From positions 1 to 64,000 of IMG/VR virus record IMGVR_UViG_3300035686_000005: a DNA stretch of 64,000 bases, one strand, 5' to 3'. Positions 22,374 to 39,529 of the stretch are shown piece by piece. The number at the start of each line of letters is the position of its first letter. Within the stretch, counting starts at the first letter, position 1. Origin of the DNA: a virus. Under the pieces are notes generated by a model that saw nothing but the letters and a program-made list of their open reading frames with translations, ran no database searches and was not told where the DNA came from. Both the position numbers and the translations under genes were made by a program.

Positions 22374-22386
22374 TAAAGTAACTTTA
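22374..22386. repeat. TAAAGTWACTTTA copy (W=A)
   Basis: perfect; 11 nt after the stop of 22015-22362, before hairpin. Confidence 0.95.
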
Positions 22387-23909: not shown

Positions 23910-23922
23910 TAAAGTAACTTTA
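23910..23922. repeat. TAAAGTWACTTTA copy (W=A)
   Basis: perfect; 7 nt after the stop of 22487-23902, before hairpin. Confidence 0.95.
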
Positions 23923-23977: not shown

Positions 23978-24280
23978 ATGCAGTACCAACCTAATTATAG
24001 ATCAAACAGAGACAGCAATCACGCCGAAATAGTAAAGGCTATCAAGAAGTTAGGATGTAGTGTTAAAGACACTTCAGCTGTTGGTGGAGGATTCCCAGAT
24101 ATTATCGTGGGAATCAAAGGACAAACTAAAAACACTAACGTCCTGATTGAAATTAAAAGTGCTAAGGGTCGTCTAAGACCTGATCAAGAGAAGTTTATAG
24201 CTAAGTGGCAAGGCAACGTGGCAGTTGTCAGGACAGTTGCAGAAGCCGAATATATATGCAACCATTACCTTAAGCTTTAG
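23978..24280 (+). CDS. VRR-NUC domain nuclease
   Basis: GGFPDIIVG...VLIEIKSAKGRLRPDQEKFIAKW pattern. Confidence 0.65.
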   Translation: MQYQPNYRSNRDSNHAEIVKAIKKLGCSVKDTSAVGGGFPDIIVGIKGQTKNTNVLIEIKSAKGRLRPDQEKFIAKWQGNVAVVRTVAEAEYICNHYLKL

Positions 24281-24681
24281 AGCCGCTTAACTTTTTCCAA
24301 AACATCATAAAATTTATAGTCCAGAGATTTCGACTCAAGAAATTTCTGGATTTTCCATATCCAATCCTTAAAGAATGTTTCAAAAACTCGATCGTCATCT
24401 TCTGCTAACATGTCCATCTCAGGCAATATGAACCGTTCTAGAAACAACAAATTAGTCGAGTTAGGGCTAAGTAAAGCAGACTCATGTAGATAATATCCAC
24501 CATTACCGTTCTTGTCTTTTACCCAAATATTTTGAATTACCAGAGTTGAATTGGGATTTCCTAAAGCGGCAATGTTTAAAGTAACTTTACGATTTGATAA
24601 TGGCTGGATTGTTTCACCATACTCATTTTCGTAAGGTTCATTTTTTGAAATAACTTCGCAAGTTCCATCAAACAAAATCAT
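24277..24681 (-). CDS. hypothetical protein, paralog of 24678-25109
   Basis: MILFDGTCEVISKNEPYENEYGETI aligns with MTILFISGTVEIIKSNEPWTNLDGETF in the neighbour. Confidence 0.6.
   Translation of the reverse strand: MILFDGTCEVISKNEPYENEYGETIQPLSNRKVTLNIAALGNPNSTLVIQNIWVKDKNGNGGYYLHESALLSPNSTNLLFLERFILPEMDMLAEDDDRVFETFFKDWIWKIQKFLESKSLDYKFYDVLEKVKRL
24577..24589. repeat. TAAAGTWACTTTA copy (W=A)
   Basis: perfect; inside 24277-24681 (RKVTLNI). Confidence 0.95.
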
Positions 24682-25118: not shown

Positions 25119-26339
25119 TTATCTATCAATTAATCCGTGTCCGGGTGTTCCTAAATCTGATACTAGCGCTGCTATTATTCTAAGCAATTCTGTAGTTGTT
25201 GGTGTTGTAGTTGTTGGTGCTGTACGTTGCAATGTAAGACCTAAAGATCCAGTAACATTATTCCATCCCGAAGAAGTCCAACCAGTACGTCTGGTACCAA
25301 TAACCTGATTGCCTGAGTGGCGATAGAATGAACCGTCAGCAACTTCTATACTTCCTGTGTTGTAGATTTGGAATCCAGTAACGCCTGAATCTCTCACGAT
25401 TCTTATGGCATTTGCACCCGATGCAAATGTGTTGATTGTTAATCCGATGTCTGCTGCATTTCCTATCTGAATCGTTGCACGGGTAAACCTACCACTAGAA
25501 GCCGTGGTGGCACCAATTGAAGTCGAATTAATTACAGAATTATTTAATGAAGCAAAAGTTATTGTAGGTAAGTCTATTGTTCCACCAGTAATAACTTGAT
25601 CTACATTATTGATTGTGCAATTAGACAAAGCAACAGAGGACATATTACCCCCTGATATTGTTTGTCCATTATTGTTTATGCTACTACCACTTATCGAACC
25701 GGAGAAGCTGACGCCAGATATTGACCCCCCAGTGATACTAACGCTATTGGAGTTTTGATTTGCCATAGTCCCAAGATTTAAGACTACGGTTGAATATGTC
25801 CCTGTTGATGATCTGAAGACAAGACCCGATCCGGCTATGTTTGCAATATTGGTAAGCTCTGTCGATCCGGCTTGCTTATTGTTAAACACAAGCCAATTAG
25901 ATGCGCTTAGAACCCCTGATTGACTGGCGTTAGCTGTCTGTATTCCTAAAGTTTTTGTCGTGGCGTCATAGGTCAAAGGAGAGGTGATCGCTTCAATGTA
26001 GCTCTCTCCAGACGGGATCGGATCGGTTGCAATATTTTCCCTAAACGTAAATTCTAGTACCCGTCTAACATCCTCCATATCAACGGATCGACCGTCTTGG
26101 TATTTTACGAAAACTCTATCCTTTTCGATAAATATTTTAGTAGCGTTCAATGTTCCATACGCTACCTCAAGATTATCCCGATTGAGTCTAATCTCAGAGT
26201 TGCCAACATAAAATATTAGCGTCTTCTCTTCAACACCTCGACTGTCATCAACTCTCACAAAAGAGTCGATGAAATTTAAGGTTTCAAGTATTCGTTTTTT
26301 AGATTTGACCCAATCAGCCAGATCTTCTATAACACTCAT
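25119..26339 (-). CDS. tail fiber-like protein
   Basis: 406 aa with Ser/Thr/Gly/Asn-rich repetitive segments (SGSISGSSINNNGQTISGGN); ATG overlaps the last base of motif 26339-26351. Confidence 0.55.
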   Translation of the reverse strand: MSVIEDLADWVKSKKRILETLNFIDSFVRVDDSRGVEEKTLIFYVGNSEIRLNRDNLEVAYGTLNATKIFIEKDRVFVKYQDGRSVDMEDVRRVLEFTFRENIATDPIPSGESYIEAITSPLTYDATTKTLGIQTANASQSGVLSASNWLVFNNKQAGSTELTNIANIAGSGLVFRSSTGTYSTVVLNLGTMANQNSNSVSITGGSISGVSFSGSISGSSINNNGQTISGGNMSSVALSNCTINNVDQVITGGTIDLPTITFASLNNSVINSTSIGATTASSGRFTRATIQIGNAADIGLTINTFASGANAIRIVRDSGVTGFQIYNTGSIEVADGSFYRHSGNQVIGTRRTGWTSSGWNNVTGSLGLTLQRTAPTTTTPTTTELLRIIAALVSDLGTPGHGLIDR

Positions 26340-26351
26340 AAAGTTACTTTA
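26339..26351. repeat. TAAAGTWACTTTA copy (W=T)
   Basis: perfect; central TAA (minus) is the stop of 26344-26559; terminal base starts the ATG of 25119-26339. Confidence 0.95.
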
Positions 26352-26559
26352 GAATTTTAGCTTCTCTAAGAATAAATATACAGATGACCTGACTTTCAAA
26401 AAACTCTATATCAAAAAGATCGTAACCCATATCATAAAACGTATTTAACCAGTTAGTCAAATTGACCGTTTCTTGTTTTGTTCCTTGTGAAAAGCTACAA
26501 GATGAGACGAAATATTTTCTAAGATTCTGAGAGTCTGATTCCATGAGTAAAACCTCCAA
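26344..26559 (-). CDS. hypothetical small protein
   Basis: 71 aa; stop is the central TAA of motif 26339-26351; overlaps the hub gene 3' end. Confidence 0.45.
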   Translation of the reverse strand: MEVLLMESDSQNLRKYFVSSCSFSQGTKQETVNLTNWLNTFYDMGYDLFDIEFFESQVICIFILREAKILK

Positions 26560-28807
26560 ACTGAATTATGTTTACTTGTCTAACTGGTTTAGCCGAAGTC
26601 GATCTATGTATCATGTCTGATGATGGACTTGCAGCAATACCTACATGGGTAATGGTGCCAGGGGGAAAGTTACCATAAGTATTTTTAAAAAATACAATAT
26701 CTCCTGGCATCAGCTGAGCAATATTAGTTATCTTTTGACCGCAATCATTACCGCTCAAAGATGAAGCCATTAGAATTCCTGTGGACATACCATCAGATGC
26801 GGCTGAAGTTATGAAATCAGCTTTTGGGTGATTGGCGGCTCTCAAGATTGTCCGAACAAAATCCATACATCTTTCGGTCTGTCCTGGTTTAAAATCTCTG
26901 TCAGGATTTACCCACTTTTGAGCTTCTTTTAAAATGTCTGCATTCTTACCCGTTGCATTGGTTTTAGGATTCCCTTGTGTAATCTGATCTCCAGGGGGCT
27001 TCTCTTCTTCAGGGGGTTCAATCTTAACAGGTAGGTATAGATCTAAAGTTACTTTAATAAATCCGTTCCAAATAATGTTAACGGCTTTTAGTCTAAAAGT
27101 TCTGAAGTATGCAGAGTTGAAAGGAAGATTTTTTATCGTATCCTTTTCAATGCTTACCAGTGTTCCTGGTTGCAAAGAAAGCACCTCAAACGTAGGATAA
27201 TTGACCTCTAGAGATGTTGAAAAGCCTTCACCTATTGCTTCATCATCTGGTAGTGATTCAATAGGCGGTAGCGCTTCTAAGACTCGCTCTTGACTTGCAG
27301 TTTCAGACGATGTAAATATACATCCCCATTCAGCTTTAGTTTTAATCTTTGGTGCATCTTTCAATGCAACTATCTTGATAGATTCCTTTTCAGCTTGAAT
27401 TGTATATCCTGAACTGTTTGCAACTCTGAGTAAAAATTGATAATCAGTTTCTGAATTTTGCTGAAGTTTCTTAGACTTATCGAGAGAAGAAAACGGTGGA
27501 ATTATTGTGTCAATTCCATAATCTAAACCGATCCTTTCTGCCAGTTGTCTAAGCGATATAGTATCGAATGATGTCCTTTTCAATCGGCTGATTAAGAATC
27601 TGATACCACGTCCACCAATTGTAGTAATAGAAGGTACGTTGTTAGAAGTTTGGCGAGAAACGAACCAATAAGAGGACACATAACGATCCTCGGAATCAGA
27701 CCATCCTATTTCTATCTGAATTTGTACGACCCAATCAGGTAACGCTGATACTTTAGCGGCTGTTGGTGCTTGAACTGGTAAAGGTGCTGTCAGTTGAGGT
27801 GTGGCGGGTGTTTGTGGGGTAAACGTGTTAGGAGTGGTAACAGCTTTTGGTGAAACGTTGCCAACTAAAGACGGGATACGTGCTAACCATTTTCTAGATT
27901 CAGATGCTACCAGCTGGGCTTTATCGGTGCCGTTGACTGTACGACGCGCATTGACAAAATCAAAATTTGCTCCGCTTCCATAGTCTGATAATTTCTTACC
28001 CGTGAATGTTGGGCATCCGTTTATACCAGTCATGCCACCGACCGCGATCGGAATCGCCCAACGCAACTGCTTAACTAGATTGACGTTATTAACAAAATCT
28101 TGCTTGAAATACGCGCCAAATCTGCTGTAATTATCTCTCCAAGTAATCTGAATTAGTCCTCTTCCGTAGTAAGGCGCATAGCGGGTATTTGCACCGCCTA
28201 TCTCTTCCGTATAGACACCCATCACAGTTTCAATTGTGATGTTGCCTAAAATGCTTGCAATATGAGAGTTATCCTTTAATCCTATTGAGTAACAATATCG
28301 AATGATTGACGCTGCCAACTCATCTCCCTTAGTCCCATCAGGGGGAAATGTGTAATTTCCTAGCTTTATCGGTGCGTTAGTGTTAGGCGCATTAGTATCT
28401 CCAGGGGGTCTGTCATCAGCTTGATTTGGTGACTTTAAGAGATTATCAGGGACTTGTATTCCTCCAGTTTTCAAAGCCCTATCCAAAAGTAGCAAATCGT
28501 ATTCATGATCCGGATCGTGAAAGGTTAACTGAACAGAATTGCTTCTGTCGGCTTCTCCATTGGATAGTTGCAATGAAATTAAATTATCAATGACTTTTTC
28601 AATTTCTTCATCAGCAAACTTATAAGTAATGGTCGGTTCTACTGTAGTTGTAACTGGTTTGGCTACAGTTGCAGTATTAGAAGTTCCTGTACCTGTGTTA
28701 GCTGGGGGTGTTTGTGTGACAGGTTTAGGCGTTTGATTTATAATCGTTTCTTTAATCGGTTTATAAATCAATCTTGCTCTTACTATCGGAACTCTTAATA
28801 CAGCCAT
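26519..28807 (-). CDS. baseplate hub / late-control-D-like protein with GH19 and NlpC/P60 peptidoglycan hydrolase domains
   Basis: YYGRGLIQITWRDNY (GH19 signature), gpD-like middle (ISLRQLAERIGLDYGID..QNSETDYQFLLRVANSSGY), C-terminal CMDFVRTIL..PGDIVFF..THVGIA (NlpC/P60). Confidence 0.7.
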   Translation of the reverse strand: MAVLRVPIVRARLIYKPIKETIINQTPKPVTQTPPANTGTGTSNTATVAKPVTTTVEPTITYKFADEEIEKVIDNLISLQLSNGEADRSNSVQLTFHDPDHEYDLLLLDRALKTGGIQVPDNLLKSPNQADDRPPGDTNAPNTNAPIKLGNYTFPPDGTKGDELAASIIRYCYSIGLKDNSHIASILGNITIETVMGVYTEEIGGANTRYAPYYGRGLIQITWRDNYSRFGAYFKQDFVNNVNLVKQLRWAIPIAVGGMTGINGCPTFTGKKLSDYGSGANFDFVNARRTVNGTDKAQLVASESRKWLARIPSLVGNVSPKAVTTPNTFTPQTPATPQLTAPLPVQAPTAAKVSALPDWVVQIQIEIGWSDSEDRYVSSYWFVSRQTSNNVPSITTIGGRGIRFLISRLKRTSFDTISLRQLAERIGLDYGIDTIIPPFSSLDKSKKLQQNSETDYQFLLRVANSSGYTIQAEKESIKIVALKDAPKIKTKAEWGCIFTSSETASQERVLEALPPIESLPDDEAIGEGFSTSLEVNYPTFEVLSLQPGTLVSIEKDTIKNLPFNSAYFRTFRLKAVNIIWNGFIKVTLDLYLPVKIEPPEEEKPPGDQITQGNPKTNATGKNADILKEAQKWVNPDRDFKPGQTERCMDFVRTILRAANHPKADFITSAASDGMSTGILMASSLSGNDCGQKITNIAQLMPGDIVFFKNTYGNFPPGTITHVGIAASPSSDMIHRSTSAKPVRQVNIIQFGGFTHGIRLSES
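27044..27056. repeat. TAAAGTWACTTTA copy (W=T)
   Basis: perfect; inside the hub gene (IKVTLDL). Confidence 0.95.
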
Positions 28808-28811
28808 ACTC

Positions 28812-28824
28812 TAAAGTAACTTTA
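28812..28824. repeat. TAAAGTWACTTTA copy (W=A)
   Basis: perfect; stop of 28822-29403; 4 nt before ATG 28807. Confidence 0.95.
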
Positions 28825-29403
28825 AGAAATCTCTCTATAAATTTTTATTACTGTGTTTTGATCGCCAAATATGGAAGCGGTTGCAGCTCCCCACACTTGA
28901 ATCATTAAGAAAACAACAGCATTTTTTGTTAATGCTAAGGTGGCGTTAGCGTCATGATCGCGTCTGTAATTTTGCACGATCGTTGATGACTGTTGGAAGA
29001 CAGTATCCTCTGATAATCCTACTTCTTGACCGTTTGCAGATATCCATAATTTGGATCTGGGTGCATTTGCATTAGTTCCACTTACTAAGGTTTTGGCAAT
29101 TATTGTATATGTCCCTGTTTCTGGCACAATGAACACACCCGATGCTGCATTAAAAGCAATAGCTTTGTTTAAGGTAGTCATCCAACCGTCGATTGGGTTT
29201 GCTACTCCGTTACCTGTAAACGTCTTTGTTGTTGCTTTATTGGCAATAACCAATATTTCAGATTTACTTATCTGATTTAATAAAGCTGTAATAGAATTGT
29301 TTGCAGAGATGAGACTATTGATGGTTGTTACCATTGCATTAAGCGATGATGCTGGCACTGTTTGTCCATCAATAAAAGTTAAATCTAACGGTTGAATAGT
29401 CAT
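28822..29403 (-). CDS. tail fiber-associated protein
   Basis: 193 aa, position next to the fiber gene; bracketed by motifs 28812 and 29408. Confidence 0.45.
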   Translation of the reverse strand: MTIQPLDLTFIDGQTVPASSLNAMVTTINSLISANNSITALLNQISKSEILVIANKATTKTFTGNGVANPIDGWMTTLNKAIAFNAASGVFIVPETGTYTIIAKTLVSGTNANAPRSKLWISANGQEVGLSEDTVFQQSSTIVQNYRRDHDANATLALTKNAVVFLMIQVWGAATASIFGDQNTVIKIYREIS

Positions 29404-29407
29404 GTTC

Positions 29408-29420
29408 TAAAGTTACTTTA
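29408..29420. repeat. TAAAGTWACTTTA copy (W=T)
   Basis: perfect; stop of 29418-30782; 4 nt before ATG 29403. Confidence 0.95.
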
Positions 29421-30782
29421 CGCCAATCTAAAAAACATTATTCTTGAATATATCTCTTGAAATCCTGACCTATTTGCAGATACGCCACCACCACTAGAAC
29501 TAGCCGTCTCTACAACATGCCTAAGTGTCAACAATGCAGTAGATGAGAAAGTTAAAATATCAATAAGTTTCATCTCTGCATTAACGTTAACAGAAGAAGA
29601 AACAAAACCAGAGTTAGACAAAGCTGAATAATTAGTTGCTGCGACTTCATCATAAAGATATATTCTACTTCCGTTGATTCTATTAGCTGTTGATGTTGCC
29701 AAGATCAGGTATGTCCCTGCTTTGACTCTTACCGCAGCTGCAACAATATCAACGATGTCTGCATTGGCATTTTGTCTTGCAATAGTATTAATTTGCCGAA
29801 TATTGACGCCAGAATTAAGGGACACACTAACACCAGATGCATAGCGTTCATCAACAATGCTGATTCTGTTTGCAAGGTTCGCTGATATATTTGAACCTGC
29901 AATAATTGCGCGAACCGTTCTAGAGTTTATTGCATTGAAGCTATTGTCTGAACCTGGTAGATCAGGGACTAAAGGGTTAACTCCAAAAGTTTGCTGATCC
30001 TCAAAAGTGTTAGGCTCATCTAACCTTGCATAATTAGTTAAGTCTGGAGTAAGAGCTAACCTAAGCAATGCATCCAATTCGCTTAAGTTTTTCCGGCTTG
30101 CAGGTTCAGTTAAAAGATTGGCAAATGTTGCAGCATTATACGCTATGTTTGTTGTTGTTGTTCCACTGCCTACTAGAGAACCGCTTACGACTAGCCAAGA
30201 TGCATTGACGTTGTTTGTACCATCCAGCAAATTACCAGGGTCGTGATAGTTGCCAGCTGCCAAAGGATCGACATTAACACCCGATGTTACTTTCATCCAT
30301 TGGTAGAGTCTTGAACCTCTAAAGGTTATTTCGTTCTTAGCAAACGATTGTGTTGTTGTCCAGTTTTTATAAACAAAACCAGGAATTCTAGCAGCTAACC
30401 GATCAAGGAATGGAACCTTAGTTAAGAGGTCAGTGATTGAGTAAAGACTCGTATCAAGCGTATCTTGGCTGAAAAATCCAGCGATTAAAGTATTACCATT
30501 TATGGGCGTTAAGTTGTCTAATATTGCAAAAAATTCATCAACCTTAGTAAATGTTGGGTTTGTGCCAGATTCAATGACAAATTTGTAAGCTATACCATAA
30601 TCTTTAGTAGTTGGCAATACAATGCTAGCCAATCCACTAGCAATATTAACTGAAGGGAAGGGTATTCCTCCAATTACTAATTTTCCAGTTCCGTCTAAAA
30701 ATGTTTCTGTTGGTGTTGCTGTGATGCGTCCTGTTGTCAGATTCGTATATGAAAAATTTACAGTTGCTTGAATGCTTGGCAT
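29418..30782 (-). CDS. tail fiber protein
   Basis: 454 aa immediately downstream of baseplate J/I-like genes; bracketed by motifs. Confidence 0.5.
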   Translation of the reverse strand: MPSIQATVNFSYTNLTTGRITATPTETFLDGTGKLVIGGIPFPSVNIASGLASIVLPTTKDYGIAYKFVIESGTNPTFTKVDEFFAILDNLTPINGNTLIAGFFSQDTLDTSLYSITDLLTKVPFLDRLAARIPGFVYKNWTTTQSFAKNEITFRGSRLYQWMKVTSGVNVDPLAAGNYHDPGNLLDGTNNVNASWLVVSGSLVGSGTTTTNIAYNAATFANLLTEPASRKNLSELDALLRLALTPDLTNYARLDEPNTFEDQQTFGVNPLVPDLPGSDNSFNAINSRTVRAIIAGSNISANLANRISIVDERYASGVSVSLNSGVNIRQINTIARQNANADIVDIVAAAVRVKAGTYLILATSTANRINGSRIYLYDEVAATNYSALSNSGFVSSSVNVNAEMKLIDILTFSSTALLTLRHVVETASSSGGGVSANRSGFQEIYSRIMFFRLA

Positions 30783-30794
30783 AAAGTTACTTTA
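30782..30794. repeat. TAAAGTWACTTTA copy (W=T)
   Basis: perfect; supplies the stop of 30792-31349 and the A of ATG 30782. Confidence 0.95.
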
Positions 30795-31349
30795 GTCTTC
30801 GAATACTATATTTATATTTCCTGGAGTTCCAAAATTCCTTGCAATAAACTTGACAATTTGATATTCAGGACTACCTAAAAAATATATTGATGGGATTACA
30901 ATCTCATAGTTGTACAAAGGAGTTCCGATAGTAGCAGGGAGTATAGAAGCTGGGGGATTAGAAGTGCCTAGTATAAAGCCGCTAGTCGCTCTTAATTTGG
31001 CTCTTAAATTAAAATCTTCGAACAATACTATCAAGGTATCGGGAAATAAACGCCGACTAAAAATTTTATATGTATCTCGTAACAACTTACGTTTTGCCTC
31101 AACATCCCAATTCTTATCCCAAAACAAACGCCATGGCGAAGCGCAATCAACAGCCATAAAATCAAGAAAGGACACATCAACAGTCATCGGATCAACCTGA
31201 TTATATAGGTCTAACCAGTATGCATAATATAAAGCAAAAAACTTTTTATATGTTTCGATTATTGACAAAATTACAGAGTTATTTCCTAGCTTTAAAGCCA
31301 TGGGAAGGTAAAACTCAACAGACAATTTTTCATAAGGTAATACTTCCAT
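30792..31349 (-). CDS. baseplate protein (P2 gpI-like)
   Basis: position after the J-like gene; DPMTVDVSFLDFMAVDCASPW...EAKRKLLRDTYKIFSRR resembles the gpI pattern. Confidence 0.5.
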   Translation of the reverse strand: MEVLPYEKLSVEFYLPMALKLGNNSVILSIIETYKKFFALYYAYWLDLYNQVDPMTVDVSFLDFMAVDCASPWRLFWDKNWDVEAKRKLLRDTYKIFSRRLFPDTLIVLFEDFNLRAKLRATSGFILGTSNPPASILPATIGTPLYNYEIVIPSIYFLGSPEYQIVKFIARNFGTPGNINIVFED

Positions 31350-32539
31350 TATGTGTATGTCCTTATAAAATTGTTTGGTTCAATTATTACCCGCAATGTA
31401 TTAATTTTTACGGGTGCTTTCTTATCACTAGCCGTTACTATTTTTACTAATGGCAAATCTCTTGCTTGTAAAATATCTCCCACATAACCCCATCTAGCAA
31501 CGGGTGTCAATGCCCCCAACAACTTAACCTGAAATATCAATTCATATAATTCTAAGGATTCCATTTCCTTAGTTTTAGCAATTGTAAAAGTTTCTCTAAC
31601 TTTGTTGTTTATGCTATCCGAAAGCTGGATCGAATCATCAGTTGAAGCAACTTTGATTGATATATCAATATCGACTAAAGGAAGAGTTAAAGAGTTGAAA
31701 TATAGCCGACCTCCTACTAAGGGGGCACGTGTACCAATATCAGCCGATAGACTTCTAATTTGTGCTGAGTTCAAAGCTGATCCGTCTGGATTTATTGCAA
31801 ACACATTCATACTTGCAACTTGGACTAATGATCCATCAAAGCTCACGTCAGGAATTGCAACAGCGATCGAACCGTTTCCCAGTGTTCCCTCTACAGCTAA
31901 TTCGAACTCTGAAGGCTGTATCAGGCTAAACTGTGTTTCCAAAAGCTTGGCAAGTAGTATCGACACACGATCGAAAAATTGATCGGGTGTCTCTTCATCG
32001 TTCCCCCCTCTAGACGGCTCATCAAGCCATATAGAATCTAGTTCAGGGTATACTTGCACAATAATCGCTTTTTGAGCCGCTTGATTGGCTTTAGAGCCTA
32101 TCTCCACGGCAATTGCATCTACGGAACAATACTGATATTGCAATGGATCGGATGTGTCCGTGTTAGCTGGAATAACTAGATCGTTCTGAGTTGCGAAAAC
32201 AACACCATTGCCGATTTGAAATCTAGTCCCACGTAAAATAATATATTCTCTATCAAAAATATTAGAAAGCAAAAATCGAACTGTGCATATAGCAAACGTT
32301 CCTTTGCTTCTCATAAACCCCAAATTCTCAATAACATTTGCGGCAATATAGGGAATAAGCTGTGCTTGAATATCAACCAATCTAGCAATACTGCTAGCTT
32401 GTGCCTCTCCCAATATAGTTAAAACAGAAGATGGAGAAAAGTCAAACAAACGCCCATTAGAAGCGGTTGTCACGTCATCTTTAAACCGCTCAAAGTATTC
32501 TTCTTTTGTAAGTTTAAGGTTACTCGGTAAATCTACCAT
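31349..32539 (-). CDS. baseplate J-like protein
   Basis: 396 aa, N-terminal DFSPSSVLTILGEAQASSIARLVD...GFMRSKGTFAICTVRF typical of J-like proteins. Confidence 0.65.
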   Translation of the reverse strand: MVDLPSNLKLTKEEYFERFKDDVTTASNGRLFDFSPSSVLTILGEAQASSIARLVDIQAQLIPYIAANVIENLGFMRSKGTFAICTVRFLLSNIFDREYIILRGTRFQIGNGVVFATQNDLVIPANTDTSDPLQYQYCSVDAIAVEIGSKANQAAQKAIIVQVYPELDSIWLDEPSRGGNDEETPDQFFDRVSILLAKLLETQFSLIQPSEFELAVEGTLGNGSIAVAIPDVSFDGSLVQVASMNVFAINPDGSALNSAQIRSLSADIGTRAPLVGGRLYFNSLTLPLVDIDISIKVASTDDSIQLSDSINNKVRETFTIAKTKEMESLELYELIFQVKLLGALTPVARWGYVGDILQARDLPLVKIVTASDKKAPVKINTLRVIIEPNNFIRTYT

Positions 32540-32545
32540 AAATCA

Positions 32546-32558
32546 TAAAGTTACTTTA
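32546..32558. repeat. TAAAGTWACTTTA copy (W=T)
   Basis: perfect; stop of 32556-32903; coordinates set from the ORF track (the printed line reads 1 lower). Confidence 0.9.
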
Positions 32559-32903
32559 GAGCGTGATATTGATTAAGAATCTTACTGATGGATCTTGGAA
32601 TCTATCAAATGTTTGGTTGCTAAGATCCTGAAGTTCATAAATATAAAATTTATCTCTAACTACTGCCCATCTGTTTAATCCGGCTGATAAGATATCCATC
32701 TGAAACTCTGTATTCTCGTTCATGATATTAGTAGCTGCAAGAAACAGATTTGTGGTATTTCCGTAATCAGGAAAAAATTCTCTCTCCCCAATTCGGACAT
32801 CCAAAAAGATCCAACCCCTAGTAATCGCCAAATCTTCAAGTTCTGACACTAAGGACAAATCGCCAGAAACAGTCTCTATTGGGTATTTAATTGCTTCTGT
32901 CAT
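32556..32903 (-). CDS. baseplate wedge protein (gp25/gpW-like)
   Basis: 115 aa, RIGEREFFPDYGN matches the GER..P.fG core. Confidence 0.6.
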   Translation of the reverse strand: MTEAIKYPIETVSGDLSLVSELEDLAITRGWIFLDVRIGEREFFPDYGNTTNLFLAATNIMNENTEFQMDILSAGLNRWAVVRDKFYIYELQDLSNQTFDRFQDPSVRFLINITL

Positions 32904-33310
32904 ACTTCTAAATACTGAATAACTACTCTAGCTCTTGTAAGTATTCCCTGTTGCGATCGTGGCTTTTCGGCTAACAAATTAAAGGTTGCTGAAACATTGG
33001 TAAAAACTACGTTGACAGTAGGAAGATTAGCTATCTTAAATTGGAGTATGGAGGGGGTAGATTTAGTACTTTCGGGAACACAAAAACTTTTTAACAATAT
33101 CACATCATCAACCGCTCGTTGACCGTCAATATGAATTGTTAAAGACCTAGGATTAGGTTGACTATTTAACCAAAATTGCTGAGAATTTACGGCAAAGGGA
33201 ACGCTAGGAGATTGATAATTGGCTGTATATCCTCCACCGTCTATCTCAGCTTCAAGATATTGAATCTTGTATATTTTTCCTGTTTCTGTGTTCCTTATGT
33301 AGGCTTCCAT
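32900..33310 (-). CDS. hypothetical baseplate/tail protein
   Basis: 136 aa, 4-nt overlap with the gp25-like gene. Confidence 0.5.
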   Translation of the reverse strand: MEAYIRNTETGKIYKIQYLEAEIDGGGYTANYQSPSVPFAVNSQQFWLNSQPNPRSLTIHIDGQRAVDDVILLKSFCVPESTKSTPSILQFKIANLPTVNVVFTNVSATFNLLAEKPRSQQGILTRARVVIQYLEV

Positions 33311-33623
33311 CTTCTAAATTTTGCATGGAATAGTATTTTCTGAATTCTTGATAACCCGGATCTTTTTTCCATTGTTGTGACCATCTCCATCGATGATATT
33401 TGTATATTAAATATTTAGGATGTTTCAAGATATATAATAATCTGCTACCAGGTAAGAACATCCATAAAAATATCTTTCCAATTGCCATTTTCCATATTTT
33501 TTTAACTTCTAGATCTTTGGTATATTCTGAATAGTTTTTACCAGGATTTTGAAGCTTCCATACATCACCTTTTTGTTTTTCGGTTGGTGCAACCATCCAA
33601 GCTAAAAGATTTAAAAAATCCAT
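33252..33623 (-). CDS. hypothetical protein
   Basis: 123 aa; ATG overlaps the last base of motif 33623-33635. Confidence 0.45.
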   Translation of the reverse strand: MDFLNLLAWMVAPTEKQKGDVWKLQNPGKNYSEYTKDLEVKKIWKMAIGKIFLWMFLPGSRLLYILKHPKYLIYKYHRWRWSQQWKKDPGYQEFRKYYSMQNLEDGSLHKEHRNRKNIQDSIS

Positions 33624-33635
33624 AAAGTTACTTTA
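33623..33635. repeat. TAAAGTWACTTTA copy (W=T)
   Basis: perfect; supplies the tape measure stop and the A of ATG 33623. Confidence 0.95.
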
Positions 33636-36600
33636 GACCGATAACGAAACTTTAAAATCAAGCATTCTATCTAACTGCTCAACAACTTGTTGAGCTACTT
33701 CTAAGGGGGATGTGCTAGCCGAATTGACAACGATTGCACCCTGGTTAATATTGATTTGGCGTCGTGAAGAATCATTGCTTTGAGTGTTTGTGTATTGGTT
33801 GGTTGCTGCATACTCTTGGAGCATTTCAAAGGCGGGAAATATAGCATTATTCCCATTATCACTATTTTGAATATTATTAATACTCTGTTTGTTATCTGTT
33901 AAAGAAGTATTGACAAATCTATAAGAGTTGAGTATGTCCTCTGTGTTTGTGTGGTTTAAGAGTGTATCTGAGTTAGTCGGCAGATTGCCCCTAAACGCAC
34001 TTCCAAAGCTTATAGTTTTTAGATTGACAACTGAATCATATAAGGTGGAAAACTCTTTATTTTTCTGGATTATGTTATCTCCTAAAACTGTCTTAGTAGA
34101 AGTATGAACATTATCATTTTTAAAATTATTAATAACACTCTCATTGCTTATCACACTCTTAAAAATATTTTCTATAGCGTAATTTCTTAGAGACTCATAA
34201 TCAGGAAAAATGTACTCAGCATCATTTGCTATTAGCAGGTTAGCTCTAGGCGGCTTATTTGCCAACTCTTGCTTGATAGCATCAACAAAGGACACATTGC
34301 TTGCTAAAGTAACTTTAGAACTATCTGGTAGGTTTCCTGAGTATGAATTTCCACCAAATAAACTATTGAGAGTGTTTCCTATTCCCCCTGCTATAGTCCC
34401 TAATCCTTGGAAAAAGCTAAACGGCGAACCTATTGCCGTTCCTATACCCGTCCCAATAACATCAGTTGCTCCTTGTGTAGCTCTGCCAACATTAACACCC
34501 GGTAATACCGGAATACTAGCAACAGCTTTTCTGAGTCGATTAAATCCATTCAAAAGAGTGTTAACATTTTCTAAAAAGACGTTAACACCTCTGATGGCAT
34601 CTCGTAACGACTTCATGATATCAAAATTTATACCTCCAAAAATATCGCTGAATTCCGCCAAAAATCCTTGTTTGCCAAATACTAGGTTAACCGTTCTAGA
34701 CACCTCAGTAAAAACTGATTGACTACCTTCTATATCAATATCTAAATCTCTCTGTATACCAAATATCCCAGTTCTCTGAGCAAACAGAGTGTCTTGAAAA
34801 GAACTTAGCTGGGCGTCTATAGAATCAGTCTGAAGTCTGCCTATAAGCTCTTGAGGCACACGTTTTTGTAATGAAGCTTGCAACACATCGATTTGTTGAG
34901 ATTGGGTAGCCTTCTTAAGGTTTACACCCAACTCTTCAGCCGTTTGTTTGATTACATCACCAAACCCAGAATTTTTAAAGAACTCTTGACGGTCTATAGC
35001 TTTCCCAAGATTGCCAGTTACAGCGCTGGTGTATGCATTCTGAACCTGAAAATTTGTCACACCAGGGGTGCTTTGTGCCAGTATTGCAAAACGTGTATTT
35101 GTATCTACTATTTGCTTGGAAATATCTTCAAGCGACCTACCAGAATTTCTATAAGCTCCTAAAAATGCAGAAGTCCCACGAGTGTTTAAATTTGTAATAT
35201 CTTCAGCAGATACACTCGTGTCTCTTCCTGCGATCTCAGTACCTGTCTGCAAACGTTCATAAAACGCATCAGCAGTTTTACGATCTACACCAGTTAATCG
35301 CTGGGTTTCTGAAGAAATACCAACCATTGCAAGTTGATCTTTTCTTGCTTTATCGACTTGTCTATTAAATTCTGCCATGGCAAAGTTGGCAGCTGTTAGA
35401 GCTAAAACAATAGAACCGCTAATAGCAGCACCAACACCTAAAGCAGCAATACGTGATAAGCCTAATCCTTCCGAAATTGTACGTGTGCCTTCTATCGCTT
35501 CTTGAATTCCTTGGGGGGCACGTCTAGAAACAGCGTCTGTCAGAAATCCGCCGATTGCATTTCTTTGAGGTGGAACATCAGCAGACCTTCTTAGATTGCT
35601 ACGACCAAAACCAACACCCGAAGATGTCAGAGGATCTTGTGTTGTGTCCTCTCTGTATTGCAATCCAGCCTTACGAGCGCTTCTTATTTGGTCTTGGCGT
35701 CTCTTCTCATTATCAGCTGCTTGCTTGGCTTCTTGCTGCCTTTGACGCAATAATTCTTGCTCTTGGCGTTTTGCTTCAGCTTCAGCACGTTTTCGATTTT
35801 CAACCTGTTGTTTGAGTCTTTGGTTGAATACTTCTGAAATGTTTTGCTGTGCCTCTTCTCGGTTCTGTCGATTTTGCGGTTCATTGCCAACAACAGTACT
35901 AAAAGCTTGGCTAGCTCGTTGATTTCGTTCTTCTAACCTTGCTTTTTTTTCTTCCTGTTGTTTGATAAAAGCCTCAGTGGCGAACCGTCTAGTGTTAGAA
36001 GTTTCTCTATTAACTAAAACTTCATCAGTCTTAAAGAATGCATTTTCTTGATTCTTTTGTGTTACTTGACTGATTATTGTTTCAGCTTTACTCTGTCTCC
36101 TAGTTCTAGATGTTTGAGTTTTTTCTACCTCTCTTTCTTTTTCTTTGGCAAGATTAGCACGAATTTCACGGTTTTCTCGCTCTATCTTGCGTCTTAATTG
36201 ATTGCTAATTTCTCCAGTATCTTCTTGTGTCGTTTGTCGTTTTTCCTTAGTTGAAGCTCCCTGTTTTTGTTGTTCCTTGGAATCTAAAGTAACTTTAAGC
36301 CTTGTCTCAATTGGCTTGCTTAATTCTGCAACAGTTTTCTTAGATTGATCGGTGAGGTTTCTTACCCGGTTGATAGACTCATTGATTGCATCATTAAATT
36401 TTCTCTGTTGAGTCTCCCAACTGGAAATGTTACGACTCAGCTGATTGAGTTGATTCAGCTGATTCAGCTTGTTTTGGGATTGGGTTAATGATGCAAGGAA
36501 TGCTTGAGACTGTGAGGTTATGTTGCCAAAACTTTTATTAATATCCGTGCTTGCAAATCTGCTTGTTGCCGATTGCAATCTACTTACCTCATCCGTTAAA

Positions 36601-36668
36601 GTTCTAACACCCGTAACAGCGCTACGAGTGTTTGCTTCAAAAATGAGAGTAAGTTTTTTGGCTGGCAT
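33633..36668 (-). CDS. tail tape measure protein
   Basis: 1011 aa, charged coiled-coil N-terminal half, Gly-rich hydrophobic segments, position between chaperone-position and baseplate genes. Confidence 0.85.
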   Translation of the reverse strand: MPAKKLTLIFEANTRSAVTGVRTLTDEVSRLQSATSRFASTDINKSFGNITSQSQAFLASLTQSQNKLNQLNQLNQLSRNISSWETQQRKFNDAINESINRVRNLTDQSKKTVAELSKPIETRLKVTLDSKEQQKQGASTKEKRQTTQEDTGEISNQLRRKIERENREIRANLAKEKEREVEKTQTSRTRRQSKAETIISQVTQKNQENAFFKTDEVLVNRETSNTRRFATEAFIKQQEEKKARLEERNQRASQAFSTVVGNEPQNRQNREEAQQNISEVFNQRLKQQVENRKRAEAEAKRQEQELLRQRQQEAKQAADNEKRRQDQIRSARKAGLQYREDTTQDPLTSSGVGFGRSNLRRSADVPPQRNAIGGFLTDAVSRRAPQGIQEAIEGTRTISEGLGLSRIAALGVGAAISGSIVLALTAANFAMAEFNRQVDKARKDQLAMVGISSETQRLTGVDRKTADAFYERLQTGTEIAGRDTSVSAEDITNLNTRGTSAFLGAYRNSGRSLEDISKQIVDTNTRFAILAQSTPGVTNFQVQNAYTSAVTGNLGKAIDRQEFFKNSGFGDVIKQTAEELGVNLKKATQSQQIDVLQASLQKRVPQELIGRLQTDSIDAQLSSFQDTLFAQRTGIFGIQRDLDIDIEGSQSVFTEVSRTVNLVFGKQGFLAEFSDIFGGINFDIMKSLRDAIRGVNVFLENVNTLLNGFNRLRKAVASIPVLPGVNVGRATQGATDVIGTGIGTAIGSPFSFFQGLGTIAGGIGNTLNSLFGGNSYSGNLPDSSKVTLASNVSFVDAIKQELANKPPRANLLIANDAEYIFPDYESLRNYAIENIFKSVISNESVINNFKNDNVHTSTKTVLGDNIIQKNKEFSTLYDSVVNLKTISFGSAFRGNLPTNSDTLLNHTNTEDILNSYRFVNTSLTDNKQSINNIQNSDNGNNAIFPAFEMLQEYAATNQYTNTQSNDSSRRQININQGAIVVNSASTSPLEVAQQVVEQLDRMLDFKVSLSV
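34305..34317. repeat. TAAAGTWACTTTA copy (W=A)
   Basis: perfect; inside the tape measure gene (SKVTLAS). Confidence 0.95.
36285..36297. repeat. TAAAGTWACTTTA copy (W=A)
   Basis: perfect; inside the tape measure gene (LKVTLDS). Confidence 0.95.
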
Positions 36669-36680
36669 AAAGTAACTTTA
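36668..36680. repeat. TAAAGTWACTTTA copy (W=A)
   Basis: perfect; supplies the stop of 36678-37088 and the A of the tape measure ATG. Confidence 0.95.
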
Positions 36681-37088
36681 TAGAATTGAGTCTAAATAGT
36701 CTTCAGCAAGTTTTGTCAATACTCTATCAGTCGGATCTGTCCAGTCTTCAGGCAGCAAAGGTAACTCAAGATAGCCTTGTAAATATTCTGCTTTGCCCCC
36801 TATTTCTTCTCTTATTGCAATGCGGCTAGCAACAATTCTATGAGATTCTACAGTTTCACTTGTTAGTTCTCTTTTTTTTCTGCCAGGATATACAGCTCTT
36901 TTAAAAGCTAAATATCTGGCTGATAGGCTTCTTAGTCTACCATCTTCAGGATTTAATTCATTCTCAAATTGGTTAGTAAATATGTCCTCTCTTGCTTCCT
37001 TCCAATCACGCATAAGAGAGGACATATCGCTCAACTTTAAAGCTATACCGTTTAGATTTAGTTGATCAGCTAAAGTAACTTTAATCAT
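36678..37088 (-). CDS. tail assembly chaperone-position protein
   Basis: 136 aa between tube and tape measure; starts MIKVTL (motif at codons 2-6). Confidence 0.5.
   Translation of the reverse strand: MIKVTLADQLNLNGIALKLSDMSSLMRDWKEAREDIFTNQFENELNPEDGRLRSLSARYLAFKRAVYPGRKKRELTSETVESHRIVASRIAIREEIGGKAEYLQGYLELPLLPEDWTDPTDRVLTKLAEDYLDSIL
37071..37083. repeat. TAAAGTWACTTTA copy (W=A)
   Basis: perfect; codons 2-6 of 36678-37088 (MIKVTL). Confidence 0.95.
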
Positions 37089-38315: not shown

Positions 38316-38328
38316 TAAAGTAACTTTA
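38316..38328. repeat. TAAAGTWACTTTA copy (W=A)
   Basis: perfect; between the sheath stop and the tube start. Confidence 0.95.
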
Positions 38329-38338: not shown

Positions 38339-39529
38339 TTAGCCACGCTTAACAAAAGATCTTGAAATCCTTTCCCGTGTTTGTACTAGATAAAGTTCGA
38401 TAGTAATCGCCAAGTTTCCATCAGCAAGCCTAGATGGGATGATGGTATAACTGTCTGGCTGTGTTCCGTCTTCTTGGAGAGGTGCAACACTAAATGCACC
38501 TTCAGCCGCAATTTGATCGAGCAAAACTTTTAAGGACAAAATAACATCTGCATTAACTGCATTATCTTGCGCCCCAACTGCAACAGTTACGTTATTTTCT
38601 CCCTGAATAACATCAGTAGGCAGGAATAAGAATGGCTTCAATACTTCCGCAGTTCTAGCGAAAATATCATTAGCAGCGTACCTCGTGTTCATATAACGCC
38701 ATGAGGTATCTTTGCTGAGAGTTCTAGCACCACAAAGCGTATAAACTTTACGGGATAACCCATCCCCATCAAGAAAGATAGTATTGATTCCCTTATCGTT
38801 AAGCTCTGTGTATTCGTCTGTTCCTATGTACCATTTTGGTAGGAACACTTCATCAACACTAGAGAAAGGAATCGGATCTTGAAAAGCTGCGGGTGAATAA
38901 TAGCCGATTCGATTACGATTAATAAACGTAGTTCTGGCAGCTGCTACGACCGACAACGGAATATTATTGTTATCAGAATCTTTACCAAATCCCCAAAAAC
39001 AAGAACTGTGTCCCTGTGGTGAATTTAATACAGCAGCTTCAGCCAATGCTTTTGTCTTATCATTGGCAGCTGTAGACAAATTGTGATAATATTCCCAATT
39101 CATCAGATTATCAGAAACCAAATTTTGGGCAGCTGCAAAAACAGTCTCTTGACCTGTTGCAAGAGTAGCCGCTTCGGGCGAGATTATGATACCGGGAGCA
39201 AGTCGGATATTTTTTGCGAGTACTAAGAAGCCAGCTACCAAATGATCTACTAGAGTTGGTGTGGTGGCAGTTGACAAGCCATTAACGAAGTAGACAGGCA
39301 CTGAGTTATCAATCAGCCTAAGAAATCTATAAGCAGGCTTGGAAGCGCTATTAGCACCAACTATCGCGTCAAATTCTACCAATGTCGGAACTAATTTTAG
39401 CTCGTTAGCCGCAATTGTACCTCCAGTTCCTTTGGTTCCAACTAAATATATGGCGTTGATTTTGTTGGTCAGAATGTTCCCAATCTGTTGAGTGAGAACT
39501 GTTGTAGTAATAAAAGGATGGCTACTCAC
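38339..39529 (-). CDS. contractile tail sheath protein
   Basis: 396 aa, size and position; N-terminal pattern ..IYLVGTKGTGG...EFDAIVG. Confidence 0.65.
   Translation of the reverse strand: MSSHPFITTTVLTQQIGNILTNKINAIYLVGTKGTGGTIAANELKLVPTLVEFDAIVGANSASKPAYRFLRLIDNSVPVYFVNGLSTATTPTLVDHLVAGFLVLAKNIRLAPGIIISPEAATLATGQETVFAAAQNLVSDNLMNWEYYHNLSTAANDKTKALAEAAVLNSPQGHSSCFWGFGKDSDNNNIPLSVVAAARTTFINRNRIGYYSPAAFQDPIPFSSVDEVFLPKWYIGTDEYTELNDKGINTIFLDGDGLSRKVYTLCGARTLSKDTSWRYMNTRYAANDIFARTAEVLKPFLFLPTDVIQGENNVTVAVGAQDNAVNADVILSLKVLLDQIAAEGAFSVAPLQEDGTQPDSYTIIPSRLADGNLAITIELYLVQTRERISRSFVKRG

Follow-up and report, generated by a model that had tools for sequence, protein, structure and literature searches.

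The stretch of DNA considered here (positions 1 to 64,000 of IMG/VR record IMGVR_UViG_3300035686_000005, herein referred to as the window) comprises 64,000 of the ~65,250 nt of a phage genome and is marked throughout by one repeated word, the 13-mer TAAAGTWACTTTA (herein referred to as the motif), which occurs in 66 exact copies against 0.02 expected from shuffled sequences. The remaining 1,249 nt of the genome (L274 8679-9927) hold two more, for a total of 68, and near-misses in the window amount to a single one-mismatch copy (60332, TAAAGTCACTTTA) and three two-mismatch copies. The motif is a perfect 6+1+6 dyad that is weakly prolonged by its flanks, with C at -1 in 36 of the 66 copies, G at +1 in 36 of the 66, and preferences for T at -2 and A at +2 (the extended 17-mer form is TCTAAAGTAACTTTAGA). 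Its centre base is A in 36 copies and T in 30, both orientations being about equally common. Beyond the core we found no sequence common to the copies and no pairwise covariation of flanking positions beyond their marginals; the motif contains no Shine-Dalgarno (SD) sequence, and a literature search for motif strings returned nothing relevant. RNA folding energies are 0 kcal/mol for the 13-mer and -1.1 kcal/mol (z = 0.1) for a real junction, and an Rfam search matched no family; with the RNA unfolded and the flanks free of covariation a hairpin is unlikely, and we rejected an RNA hairpin, an intrinsic terminator and other structured RNA as explanations. A mobile miniature element (REP/MITE-like) or transposon footprint was likewise rejected, as the copies have no common flanks and those within genes are substitutions, not insertions.

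The phage itself (herein the window phage) is novel and myovirus-like, with a Mu-like portal, a family B polymerase (PolB), RecT, baseplate J and a Mu gp36-like protein; other genes encode a D12 adenine methyltransferase as well as T5orf172/GIY-YIG-like and VRR-NUC proteins. An FHA-domain gene and a KilA-N DNA-binding-domain gene lie in the part of the genome beyond the window (L274 8564-9868), and one of the two motif copies there is inside the latter (read DKVTLD). The tail region of the phage found no match among 50,697 phage records at the nucleotide or protein level, neither its baseplate protein nor a 237-aa protein retrieved a close relative when IMG/VR was scanned, and a capsid-profile scan of 185,579 bacterial genomes recovered no prophage relatives. 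PolB is most similar to the polymerases of the Nostoc/Anabaena myoviruses N1, A1, Elbi, A-1(L) and YongM (30-36% identity), and because of this affinity, of relatives rich in the HIP1 octamer and of a relative in a Chroococcidiopsis metagenome-assembled genome (MAG), the host is probably a cyanobacterium.

Placement of the motif along the genome

Relative to our own greedy open reading frame (ORF) calls, which were cross-checked against the public gene calls for the identical contig, 23 copies are associated with a stop only (on it or up to 15 nt after it), eight lie near both a stop and a start, six near a start only, 17 inside genes (17-20 depending on doubtful ORFs) and 12 elsewhere in spacers; in total, 31 copies are on or within 15 nt past a stop and 14 on or within 15 nt before a start. 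Purely intergenic copies also crowd against ORFs, 18 of 29 lying within 15 nt of an ORF end where 10.6 would be expected (z = 3.3). A stop occurs in four of the motif's six reading frames, which limits sites to non-coding DNA, to positions that span a stop codon or to the K-V-T-L frame. Indeed, every intragenic copy is read K-V-T-L, essentially the sole stop-free frame, and these residues align with ordinary residues of homologous proteins, indicating an origin by substitution and not by insertion. Spacing is over-regular (coefficient of variation, CV, of 0.56 vs 0.99 for random placement; largest gap of 2,322 nt vs ~4,550), neither value being reached in any of 20,000 simulations (0/20,000), and long genes hold internal copies. 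In the early regions the order stop, motif, 2-16 nt, intrinsic terminator recurs: 11 of the ~12 strong distinct terminators in the first 20 kb have an adjoining motif copy, ~12 copies of that stretch sit 2-16 nt ahead of a terminator, and promoter-like sites of the canonical sigma-70 type are separate from the motif, downstream of the terminators (e.g., 8803-8831).

An earlier note on this DNA had described the motif as a fixed stop/restart junction, TAA-AGT-WAC-TTT-ATG (TAAAGTWACTTTATG), integrated into gene architecture and consistent with termination-reinitiation coupling or with cassette-wise assembly of the genome. Its account of the codons holds. All 19 stop codons said to be supplied by the motif are reproduced in our ORF calls: the first TAA of the motif ends the gene in 14 copies (1866, 2425, 5043, 16868 and 61767 for plus-strand genes; 5365, 13347, 17265, 28812, 29408, 30782, 32546, 33623 and 36668 for minus-strand genes), where random placement predicts 0.08; the central TAA does so in four (971, 26339, 40068 and 63379); and at 62280 the stop is a TAG made of motif positions 12-13 and the next base. 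The stop at 26339 is doubtful, because its 66-aa ORF (26344-26544) overlaps the upstream gene and has no counterpart in the public gene calls. An ATG takes its A from the end of the motif at 26339, 30782, 33623 and 36668, and at the latter three the stop-to-start distance is 12 nt, hence both codons share a frame; at 28807, 29403, 32539 and 40064 the start lies 4, 4, 6 and 3 nt beyond the motif, respectively. Conserved N-termini in a relative, L121, back the ATGs at 36668 (MPAKKLTLIFEA vs MSTKKLTLIFEA) and 30782 (MPSIQATVNFS vs MASISVTVNFS). Integration into gene architecture is equally borne out, 46 of the 66 copies falling in junctions or non-coding DNA, which make up ~10% of the sequence. 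The copies are as follows, in window coordinates and with the strand of each gene in parentheses; the gene of a small predicted DNA-binding protein beside the copy at 5043 is included.

458..470: 5 nt past the stop of 36..452 (+); terminator 477-494 next
535..547: ATG 559 begins 11 nt downstream
971..983: central TAA ends 559..978 (+)
1866..1878: first TAA ends Dam-like methyltransferase gene 1050..1868 (+); terminator 1889-1910
2425..2437: first TAA ends 1975..2427 (+); terminator 2448-2475
2926..2938: intergenic; hairpin 2941-2963 next
3838..3850: intergenic; terminator 3858-3876 next
5043..5055: first TAA ends 4803..5045 (+); the TTGACA (5063) of the promoter-like site of the following gene lies 7 nt on
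5119..5307 (+): gene of a 62-aa, Arc-like ribbon-helix-helix (RHH) protein (Pfam RHH_4, E 1.3e-3)
5365..5377: first TAA on the minus strand ends 5375..6064 (-)
6844..6856: within 6784..7362 (-), DKVTLT
7444..7456: between divergent genes
8760..8772: 5 nt past the stop of 7531..8754 (+); terminator 8779-8794, then promoter-like 8803-8831
9302..9314: 7 nt past the stop of 8857..9294 (+); terminator 9319-9340
10404..10416: 14 nt past terminator 10364-10389; ATG 10427 lies 10 nt on
11215..11227: within the 3' end of 10427..11236 (+), PKVTLK
11719..11731: within the 3' end of 11294..11743 (+), AKVTLG; ATG of RecT 17 nt on
13347..13359: first TAA ends TIR protein gene 13357..14004 (-)
14009..14021: 4 nt ahead of the ATG of 13357..14004 (-)
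14740..14752: abuts the stop of 14506..14739 (+)
16868..16880: first TAA ends 16214..16870 (+); terminator 16896-16915
17265..17277: first TAA ends 17275..17577 (-); terminator 17248-17224
17898..17910: within 17596..18180 (+), SKVTLS
18368..18380: within 18180..18905 (+), SKVTLS
19771..19783: 13 nt ahead of ATG 19797
21649..21661: within 21614..22015 (+), SKVTLE
22374..22386: 11 nt past the stop of 22015..22362 (+); hairpin next
23910..23922: 7 nt past the stop of 22487..23902 (+); hairpin next
24577..24589: within 24277..24681 (-), RKVTLN
26339..26351: last A is the A of the ATG of 25119..26339 (-); central TAA ends only the doubtful 66-aa ORF
27044..27056: within tail lysozyme-like gene 26519..28807 (-), IKVTLD; same position in L121, TAAAGCCACTTTA (LKATLD)
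28812..28824: stop of 28822..29403 (-); ATG 28807 lies 4 nt on
29408..29420: stop of 29418..30782 (-); ATG 29403 lies 4 nt on
30782..30794: 15-nt junction, stop of 30792..31349 (-) and ATG of 29418..30782 (-)
32546..32558: stop of 32556..32903 (-); ATG of baseplate J gene 31349..32539 (-) 6 nt on
33623..33635: 15-nt junction, stop of 1011-aa gene 33633..36668 (-) and ATG of 33252..33623 (-); L121 has TAAagtcgctttATG
34305..34317: within 33633..36668 (-), SKVTLA
36285..36297: within 33633..36668 (-), LKVTLD
36668..36680: 15-nt junction, stop of 36678..37088 (-) and ATG of 33633..36668 (-); L121 has TAAagtgactttaggATG
37071..37083: codons 2-6 of 36678..37088 (-), MIKVTLA
38316..38328: 10 nt past the stop of 38339..39529 (-)
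40068..40080: central TAA ends 40073..40543 (-); GTG 40064 lies 3 nt on
41100..41112: within 40830..41141 (-); 10 nt past the stop of 41123..42274 (-)
42289..42301: 7 nt past the stop of 42309..42899 (-); ATG of capsid-like gene 41123..42274 (-) 14 nt on
43261..43273: within 42904..43989 (-), NKVTLE
45321..45333: within the 5' end of portal gene 44124..45380 (-), NKVTLE
46372..46384: within 45355..47142 (-), PKVTLE
46981..46993: within 45355..47142 (-), IKVTLW
47883..47895: intergenic
50205..50217: within PolB gene 48183..50411 (-), SKVTLE
51148..51160: within 916-aa gene 50516..53266 (+), YKVTLE
53273..53285: 6 nt past the stop of 50516..53266 (+); hairpin next
53851..53863: intergenic; adjoins a terminator-like hairpin
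54462..54474: 10 nt past the stop of 54485..55231 (-); terminator near-identical to 3858-3876
55301..55313: intergenic; adjoins a hairpin
55866..55878: past a minus-strand terminator; ATG of 55446..55850 (-) 15 nt on
56332..56344: 7 nt past the stop of 56352..57323 (-); hairpin next
57388..57400: intergenic; hairpin next
58137..58149: one of a pair bracketing a terminator hairpin
58178..58190: the other of that pair; 12 nt past the stop of 58203..58898 (-)
58979..58991: 11 nt past the stop of 59003..59839 (-); hairpin next
60215..60227: gene-poor region
60332..60344: sole one-mismatch copy, identical to the variant of relative L121; abuts a TTGCAGACA box
61247..61259: intergenic
61767..61779: first TAA ends 61323..61769 (+)
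62280..62292: TAG (motif positions 12-13 and next base) ends 62063..62293 (+)
62723..62735: intergenic
63379..63391: central TAA ends 63384..63836 (-)

Near-identical terminators, each beside a motif copy, occur at 3837-3886 and 54426-54475 (88% over 50 nt) and at 9320-9347 and 58149-58176 (93% over 28 nt); it seems, from this similarity, that modules of motif plus terminator were duplicated inside the genome. Another repeated word, TTGCAGACA(T), is present in 13 copies (including 3884-3921, 59994, 60067 and 60323), three of them arranged tandemly just behind a terminator, two immediately ahead of TACAAT/TATAAT-like hexamers and one abutting the one-mismatch motif, and may be an operator or early-promoter element of another regulator. 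The gene-poor region 59900-61300, a candidate replication origin or control region, contains boxes of this word together with three ~41-nt repeats that begin AAATAAATAAATTACCCCCCCCTATTCCA (60591, 60967 and 60997). The gene at 13357-14004 (-) fuses a TIR domain to a mechanosensitive-channel beta-domain (Pfam E 1.5e-26), an unusual cargo that may relate to defence or counter-defence.

Palindromes of syntenic relatives and cultured cyanophages

Syntenic relatives found via the baseplate protein (47-61% identity) each carry a palindrome of their own at largely the same junctions:

L121: TAAAGTSACTTTA, plus TAAAGCGACTTTA
L123: TAAACCGGTTTA
L246: TAAAGYATACTTTA
L247: TAAAGTATACTTTA

Site positions are kept among these relatives, and sequence and even length change in concert; the intragenic site at 27044 is among those shared with L121. 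In L123, three junctions have the form TAAaccggttt..., two of them being TAAaccggtttATG, which leaves the stop and the start in different frames. The asymmetric variants of L121 are found facing either way with respect to transcription. The variant carried does not simply track phylogeny: contig C, a relative of the window phage at 50% identity, has the motif of the window, whereas L121, at 61%, has the form with an S centre. The HIP1 octamer GCGATCGC is present in more than 20 copies in 13-15 kb of L246 and L247, in two copies in the 64 kb of the window and in none in L121 and L123, a contrast within one phage family that suggests different host groups.

These comparisons, taken with the placement of the copies, speak against termination-reinitiation coupling as the purpose of the motif. 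Only 8 of the 66 copies lie near both a stop and a start, the dyad occurs in both orientations, and its RNA is unfolded and carries no SD; L121 homologues have the stop upstream of the motif and the ATG 2-8 nt downstream, and other relatives keep junction palindromes of different sequence and length, even out of frame in the case of TAAaccggtttATG. We find no strand-specific element of conserved phase, as sequence, length and phase all differ in L121, L123, L246 and L247, and the exact motif also forms paired promoter-region sites beside MarR genes in bacteria (see below). Translational coupling through ATGA or TAATG is alike in setting stop and start a few nucleotides apart (8 junctions here are within 15 nt), but it needs no 13-nt palindrome, and ordinary ATGA and TAATG overlaps without the motif are used in the same genome. 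Start-associated sequences of Cluster K mycobacteriophages, which are asymmetric 13-bp sequences 3-8 bp upstream of starts and contain an SD, also differ from the motif, a dyad without SD of which only 14 of 66 copies lie within 15 nt of a start. Cassette-wise assembly fares no better: intragenic copies arose by substitution, the copies share no sequence beyond the motif, and no gene is common to the window phage and the other motif-carrying phage described below. Where the earlier note had looked to relatives that keep gene order and lose the motif, half of that is found, this sequence being absent from the relatives and an analogous palindrome standing at the same place. The 15-nt stop/restart string is real, yet it does not in itself point to a dedicated coupling signal, and TAAAGTWACTTTATG is most likely a by-product, the shortest junction that fits a 13-bp dyad site between packed genes.

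A palindrome of the same family is known from cultured phages. A1 and Elbi carry TAGAGTSACTCTA in a like architecture (23 copies in 50 kb of A1, 15 in 30 kb of Elbi), placed either directly downstream of a stop with a terminator behind them or 4-14 nt ahead of an ATG; the counterpart of the extended 17-mer for the A-1(L)/Elbi palindrome is TAGAGTCACTCTA. All 23 inspected copies in A1 appear intergenic, as judged by their flanks alone, compared with ~20 inside genes in the window. TAGAGTSACTCTA may resemble the P22 arc operator (TAGA-N5-TCTA). A1 and Elbi share a second word, CCCCGGAGTCA, which builds their terminators and has ~60 copies in A1. N1 (L125) carries CCCCGGAATCA 63 times and A1 (L273) carries CCCCGGAGTCA ~60 times, with no cross-copies and the same listed host strain, Elbi having the A1 form; one base of this word is switched in concert in all copies, and its inverted pairs form terminators. 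We found no A1-type palindrome in N1, and neither A1 motif nor HIP1 in the Anabaena podovirus A-4L (L275), which has a repeated word of its own (TCACTAACACACA, 8-14 copies) and a closely related Anabaena host. As N1 and A-4L lack the A1 palindrome despite the same or related Nostoc/Anabaena hosts, no general host requirement for it exists there.

The A-1 repeat has been reported before (Chenard et al. 2016, mBio, PMC4916379), TAGAGTSACTCTA differing from TAAAGTWACTTTA by two symmetric base changes, and the window phage conforms to its type in form (TA[A/G]AGT-N-ACT[T/C]TA, in tens of copies per 65-69 kb myovirus genome), in placement between ORFs with an orientation free of the flanking genes, and in a distant relatedness to A-1/N-1 through PolB (30-36% identity). 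That study described the A-1/N-1 motifs as asymmetric, did not mention a dyad, and reported them as putative promoters or, alternatively, stoperators; stop/start overlaps, even spacing, the variant series and the occurrence in unrelated phages were unreported (PMC4916379). A promoter core would take TAAAGT as a -10 hexamer of the TAnnnT type, with transcription starting 7 nt on at the last A, such that mRNAs begun in TAAAGTWACTTTATG would have no leader and those begun at the other junctions a very short one. The distance between the hexamer (motif positions 1-6) and the A (position 13) is suitable for this, copies do lie past terminators and 4-15 nt ahead of ATGs in the window (10404, 55866), A1 and Elbi, the ATG of a Nocardioidaceae MarR gene overlaps the motif likewise, and the A-1 motif was first listed as a putative promoter (Chenard et al. 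2016). A dyad, however, would fire both ways at every junction; 23 copies past a stop have no start within 15 nt, ~12 in the first 20 kb stand 2-16 nt ahead of a terminator and ~20 lie inside genes, while sigma-70-like promoters lie separately past terminators (8803-8831). The L123 variant TAAACC lacks the final T, and Chenard et al. themselves doubted promoter function, orientation being inconsistent (PMC4916379). We hence regard a promoter core as very unlikely.

The same word in an unrelated phage and in bacteria

The exact motif recurs in a phage of different descent, IMGVR_UViG_3300050498_000031 (herein phage A), a podovirus with a complete genome of 47,830 bp, a 184-nt terminal repeat, a family A polymerase (PolA), a T7-like primase-helicase and a P22-like portal. 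It carries 67 exact and three one-off copies whose spacing has a CV of 0.59, the widest gap being 1,883 nt; its placement classes match those of the window phage, K-V-T-L copies included, and in many copies GGAG comes immediately behind the motif, with an ATG after another 5-7 nt. A third lineage with the motif is IMGVR_UViG_3300029913_000052.

Such sharing would be expected if a DNA machine of the host read the word as a density tag across the genome, comparable to Chi, uptake sequences or HIP1. The phage would then have to show the word at close intervals, for instance to halt a host exonuclease or defence translocase, or a host repair bias would let copies build up, and the position at gene ends would only mark places that can put up with a word so rich in stops. 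Like Chi- and uptake-type words, the motif is over-represented and evenly spread, genes included; the even spacing with a ceiling of ~2 kb holds in two unrelated phages, copies arise by substitution where a protein tolerates K-V-T-L, and one-off variants are nearly absent. The word is found in gene-unrelated phages with different modules (PolB and Mu-like portal vs PolA and P22-like portal), its variants do not follow phylogeny (contig C at 50% has the same motif, L121 at 61% does not), and the HIP1-rich relatives show uptake of host-type words. Against this, a 17-mer scan of bacterial genomes gave no word-rich genome among the matches listed, its hits being essentially isolated besides one phage-like contig from a Chroococcidiopsis MAG (one Melioribacter locus is a tandem gene repeat); N1 and A-4L infect the Nostoc/Anabaena hosts of A1 and Elbi, or close relatives of these hosts, and yet lack the A1-type palindrome; and every one of the ~60 CCCCGGANTCA copies has one base in A1 that is different in N1, although the two phages share a host. 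Known Chi and uptake words are, moreover, asymmetric and shorter. A density tag is, on balance, rather unlikely.

The copies could also be recombination linkers, short homologies at module boundaries that would let a RecT-type system swap or invert cassettes between phages with a common linker, as in the cassette-wise assembly of the earlier note. A RecT gene is present, the sites lie at boundaries, a palindrome works in either orientation and the same word is found in several unrelated phages; small-ORF insertions or deletions between relatives adjoin motif copies, and the pair 58137/58178 brackets only a terminator. On the other side, 13-17 bp offer very little length for exchange driven by homology, no gene common to the window phage and phage A gives a sign of exchange, and second-order selection cannot keep 68 copies perfect. 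Neither even spacing nor conserved intragenic copies would be expected of linkers, and the repeats of Cluster O phages are rarely at rearrangement points (PMC4351075), which together leave this explanation highly improbable.

Even less credit is due to sites of a nickase, nuclease or modification enzyme, for instance T5-like nicks or methylation by the phage Dam-like enzyme. The near-exclusive occurrence of exact copies is as for recognition sites, the variable cores (GTWAC, GTSAC, GTATAC and CCGG) resemble type II sites, and the window phage encodes the D12 adenine methyltransferase, T5orf172/GIY-YIG-like and VRR-NUC proteins; A1, moreover, has both an N6-adenine methyltransferase and the palindrome, and N1 has neither. 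No enzyme is shared with phage A, however; a specificity of 13-17 bp is unusual for methyltransferases, known phage nick sites are asymmetric and on one strand only, and conservation of the outer TAAA/TTTA and placement on the terminator side would go unexplained.

In bacteria, exact 13-mers occur as pairs 15-45 nt apart at ten loci, some of which are coding K-V-T-L repeats or phage-like regions. Pairs adjacent to MarR genes, 16-27 nt apart in divergent promoter regions, come from two phyla:

L277 2155-2230, Nocardioidaceae MAG: 13-mer pair in a divergent promoter region, MarR-family gene beside an APH gene
L284 6060-6125, Pedobacter sp. AJM: 13-mer pair in a divergent promoter region, MarR-family gene beside an MFS transporter gene

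At L277, the MarR ATG overlaps the motif as TAAAGTTACTTTATG, as in the phage junctions. Paired sites beside MarR genes have classic operator geometry, and from this arrangement the word is plausibly a site for a winged-helix dimer; AT-rich arms with a GT..AC core are typical of such sites. MarR-family operators, in comparison, comprise two sites per regulon vs 68 here, and we detected no MarR homologue in the window phage.

An RNA-level signal at cistron boundaries would widen the coupling idea of the earlier note: as part of the mRNA, UAAAGUWACUUUA would favour termination-reinitiation or SD-independent initiation, or would serve processing or stability through a host component (ribosome or RNase). 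Such a signal would suit the 31 copies on or just past (within 15 nt) stops and the 14 as close before starts, the boundary copies all being in transcribed positions (before a terminator, or between terminator and ATG), and the centre-base bias at gene ends (19 A : 4 T, p = 0.003), which is missing within genes. Many window-phage genes have no obvious SD, phage A often has GGAG, 5-7 nt and ATG after the motif, and GUAACUUUA agrees at 8 of 9 bases with UUAACUUUA, the 'epsilon' enhancer of T7 gene 10. Reading by the host would, in addition, fit the absence of a shared phage protein and explain the motif in unrelated phages. But RNA has no need of a perfect dyad and is unfolded here, and the sites occur in both orientations relative to transcription, the asymmetric variants of L121 included. 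About 20 copies lie in ORFs, where initiation or cleavage would be harmful; many 3' copies precede a terminator, with the next ATG 55-100 nt off behind its own promoter-like site; relatives differ in sequence, length (12-14 nt) and stop/start phase; and the same DNA word forms paired promoter-region sites in bacteria. We therefore consider an RNA-level signal quite unlikely.

A putative genome-wide array of protein-binding sites

The motif is most likely read by some DNA-binding factor. From the observed sites, with their symmetry, invariance, placement and spacing, we infer binding by a protein dimer, the class of that protein and the effect of its binding, and we tentatively favour, at a little under an even chance, an array of sites that spans the genome and is bound, as duplex DNA, by a symmetric dimer, in the manner of stoperators or of the Cluster O repeats. 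The array would consist of ~68 identical sites, ~1 per kb and never more than 2.3 kb apart, and its reader would be a symmetric dimer on double-stranded DNA of the winged-helix (MarR/PadR-like) or RHH class. Selection for a dense and even array in a compact genome would drive the stop-rich sites onto ORF ends. By analogy with mycobacteriophage stoperators and the Cluster O repeats, the bound protein would act genome-wide: it would insulate genes from one another or block transcription from gene to gene, unaided in the late operon and jointly with intrinsic terminators in the early regions, or it would organise the DNA in some other way. Small DNA-binding proteins of the two phages would suit such an array, namely three PadR-like winged-helix paralogues in phage A and, in the window phage, an RHH and a KilA-N protein.

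Stoperators of Cluster A mycobacteriophages, the sites of the L5 gp71-type repressor, are 13-bp gene-boundary sites in tens per genome, with a genome-specific variant that changes with its reader, and they block elongation (PMC6550527, PMC9283540). The concerted change of the sites in relatives of the window phage is as described for stoperators and their repressors (PMC6550527) and supports a binding-site reading, and the window phage shares with them many 13-bp sites at gene boundaries and a genome-specific consensus. Stoperators are, however, asymmetric, monomer-bound and predominantly in one orientation to transcription, unlike the motif, a dyad that is found either way round; their phages are temperate and have a known immunity repressor, whereas our scans found no repressor/integrase pair here. 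The 17-bp dyad repeats of Cluster O mycobacteriophages (TGTTCGGNNNCCGAACA) appear especially akin and are the closest analogue: 34 invariant copies lie genome-wide, about a third in genes, many at gene ends and mostly not at promoters, in phages that are not obviously temperate, and dimeric DNA-binding proteins were predicted to bind them (PMC4351075). The motif is likewise an invariant inverted repeat in more than 30 copies throughout the genome, with a coding fraction of 17-20 of 66 and separate promoters. The resemblance is of kind only, as sequence, host phylum and phage type differ; Cluster O copies are denser toward one genome end whereas those of the window phage are even, and no sharing with unrelated phages has been reported for them.

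Several observations weigh against a dimer-bound array. On the sense strand, the centre base is A in 19 of the 23 copies directly 3' of a gene (19 A : 4 T, p = 0.003) and in 11 of the 13 copies whose stop is separate from the motif (11:2), and it is unbiased within genes (8 A : 9 T); a symmetric dimer on duplex DNA cannot sense strand. Examples of these gene-end copies are 458, 8760, 9302, 22374, 23910, 53273, 54462, 56332, 58178 and 58979. The half-sites stand at different distances in the relatives (12-, 13- and 14-mers), and a single conserved dimer geometry fits this poorly. No protein common to the window phage and phage A was found (phmmer, E<1, both genomes complete, the comparison taking in the 1,249 nt outside the window and a 2.4-kb chunk of phage A), and the reader would hence be host-encoded, or two unrelated proteins would read the same 13 bp. 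Neither a MarR-like nor a PadR-like protein was found in the window phage, and the PadR-like proteins of phage A and the bacterial MarR proteins have no counterpart there; the RHH, KilA-N and T5orf172 proteins of the window phage are likewise not shared. Pfam and PHROG scans of most ORFs found no integrase, parAB or immunity/CI-like repressor, and with neither integrase nor immunity repressor a lysogeny-type silencing as in true stoperators is unlikely. The RHH protein (5119..5307) is a weak candidate for the reader. An Arc-like PHROG match (E 6.7e-6), obtained in a batch of 35 small proteins and not mapped to a gene, most likely belongs to it; the protein is, at the same time, without a homologue among 5.8 billion proteins, even in relatives, and has no PDB match. 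A match of window 6074-6787 to contig C was considered as a shared reader and dropped, since the domain looks structural and contig C is a relative.

A different reader would be a cellular factor rather than a phage protein, with unrelated cyanophages independently loading the same 13-bp word at intervals of at most 2.3 kb as a required 'pass' or handle. We regard this as unlikely. The palindrome might, for example, halt a host nuclease or a defence translocase as Chi does, or be bound by a hijacked winged-helix regulator of the host (MarR-type) that coats and times the whole genome; its variants in close relatives would report host-strain specificity; and it would represent a new kind of host-specified genome tag, through which the motif could help to link uncultured phages to their hosts.

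Dense arrays of invariant repeats are known in several phage groups (stoperators, Cluster O, A-1/N-1) and are understood only for stoperators. To these the window phage adds constraints, namely over-regular spacing with in-frame copies in long genes, concerted change with kept positions, an identical 13-mer in a gene-unrelated complete phage, and paired promoter-region use beside bacterial MarR genes. The motif also offers an independent aid to the annotation of starts and stops in orphan-rich phage genomes. The constraints together make the question of its function testable, and cultured phages on the same or closely related Nostoc/Anabaena hosts, A-1 or Elbi with the palindrome and N-1 without it, offer a contrast for doing so.

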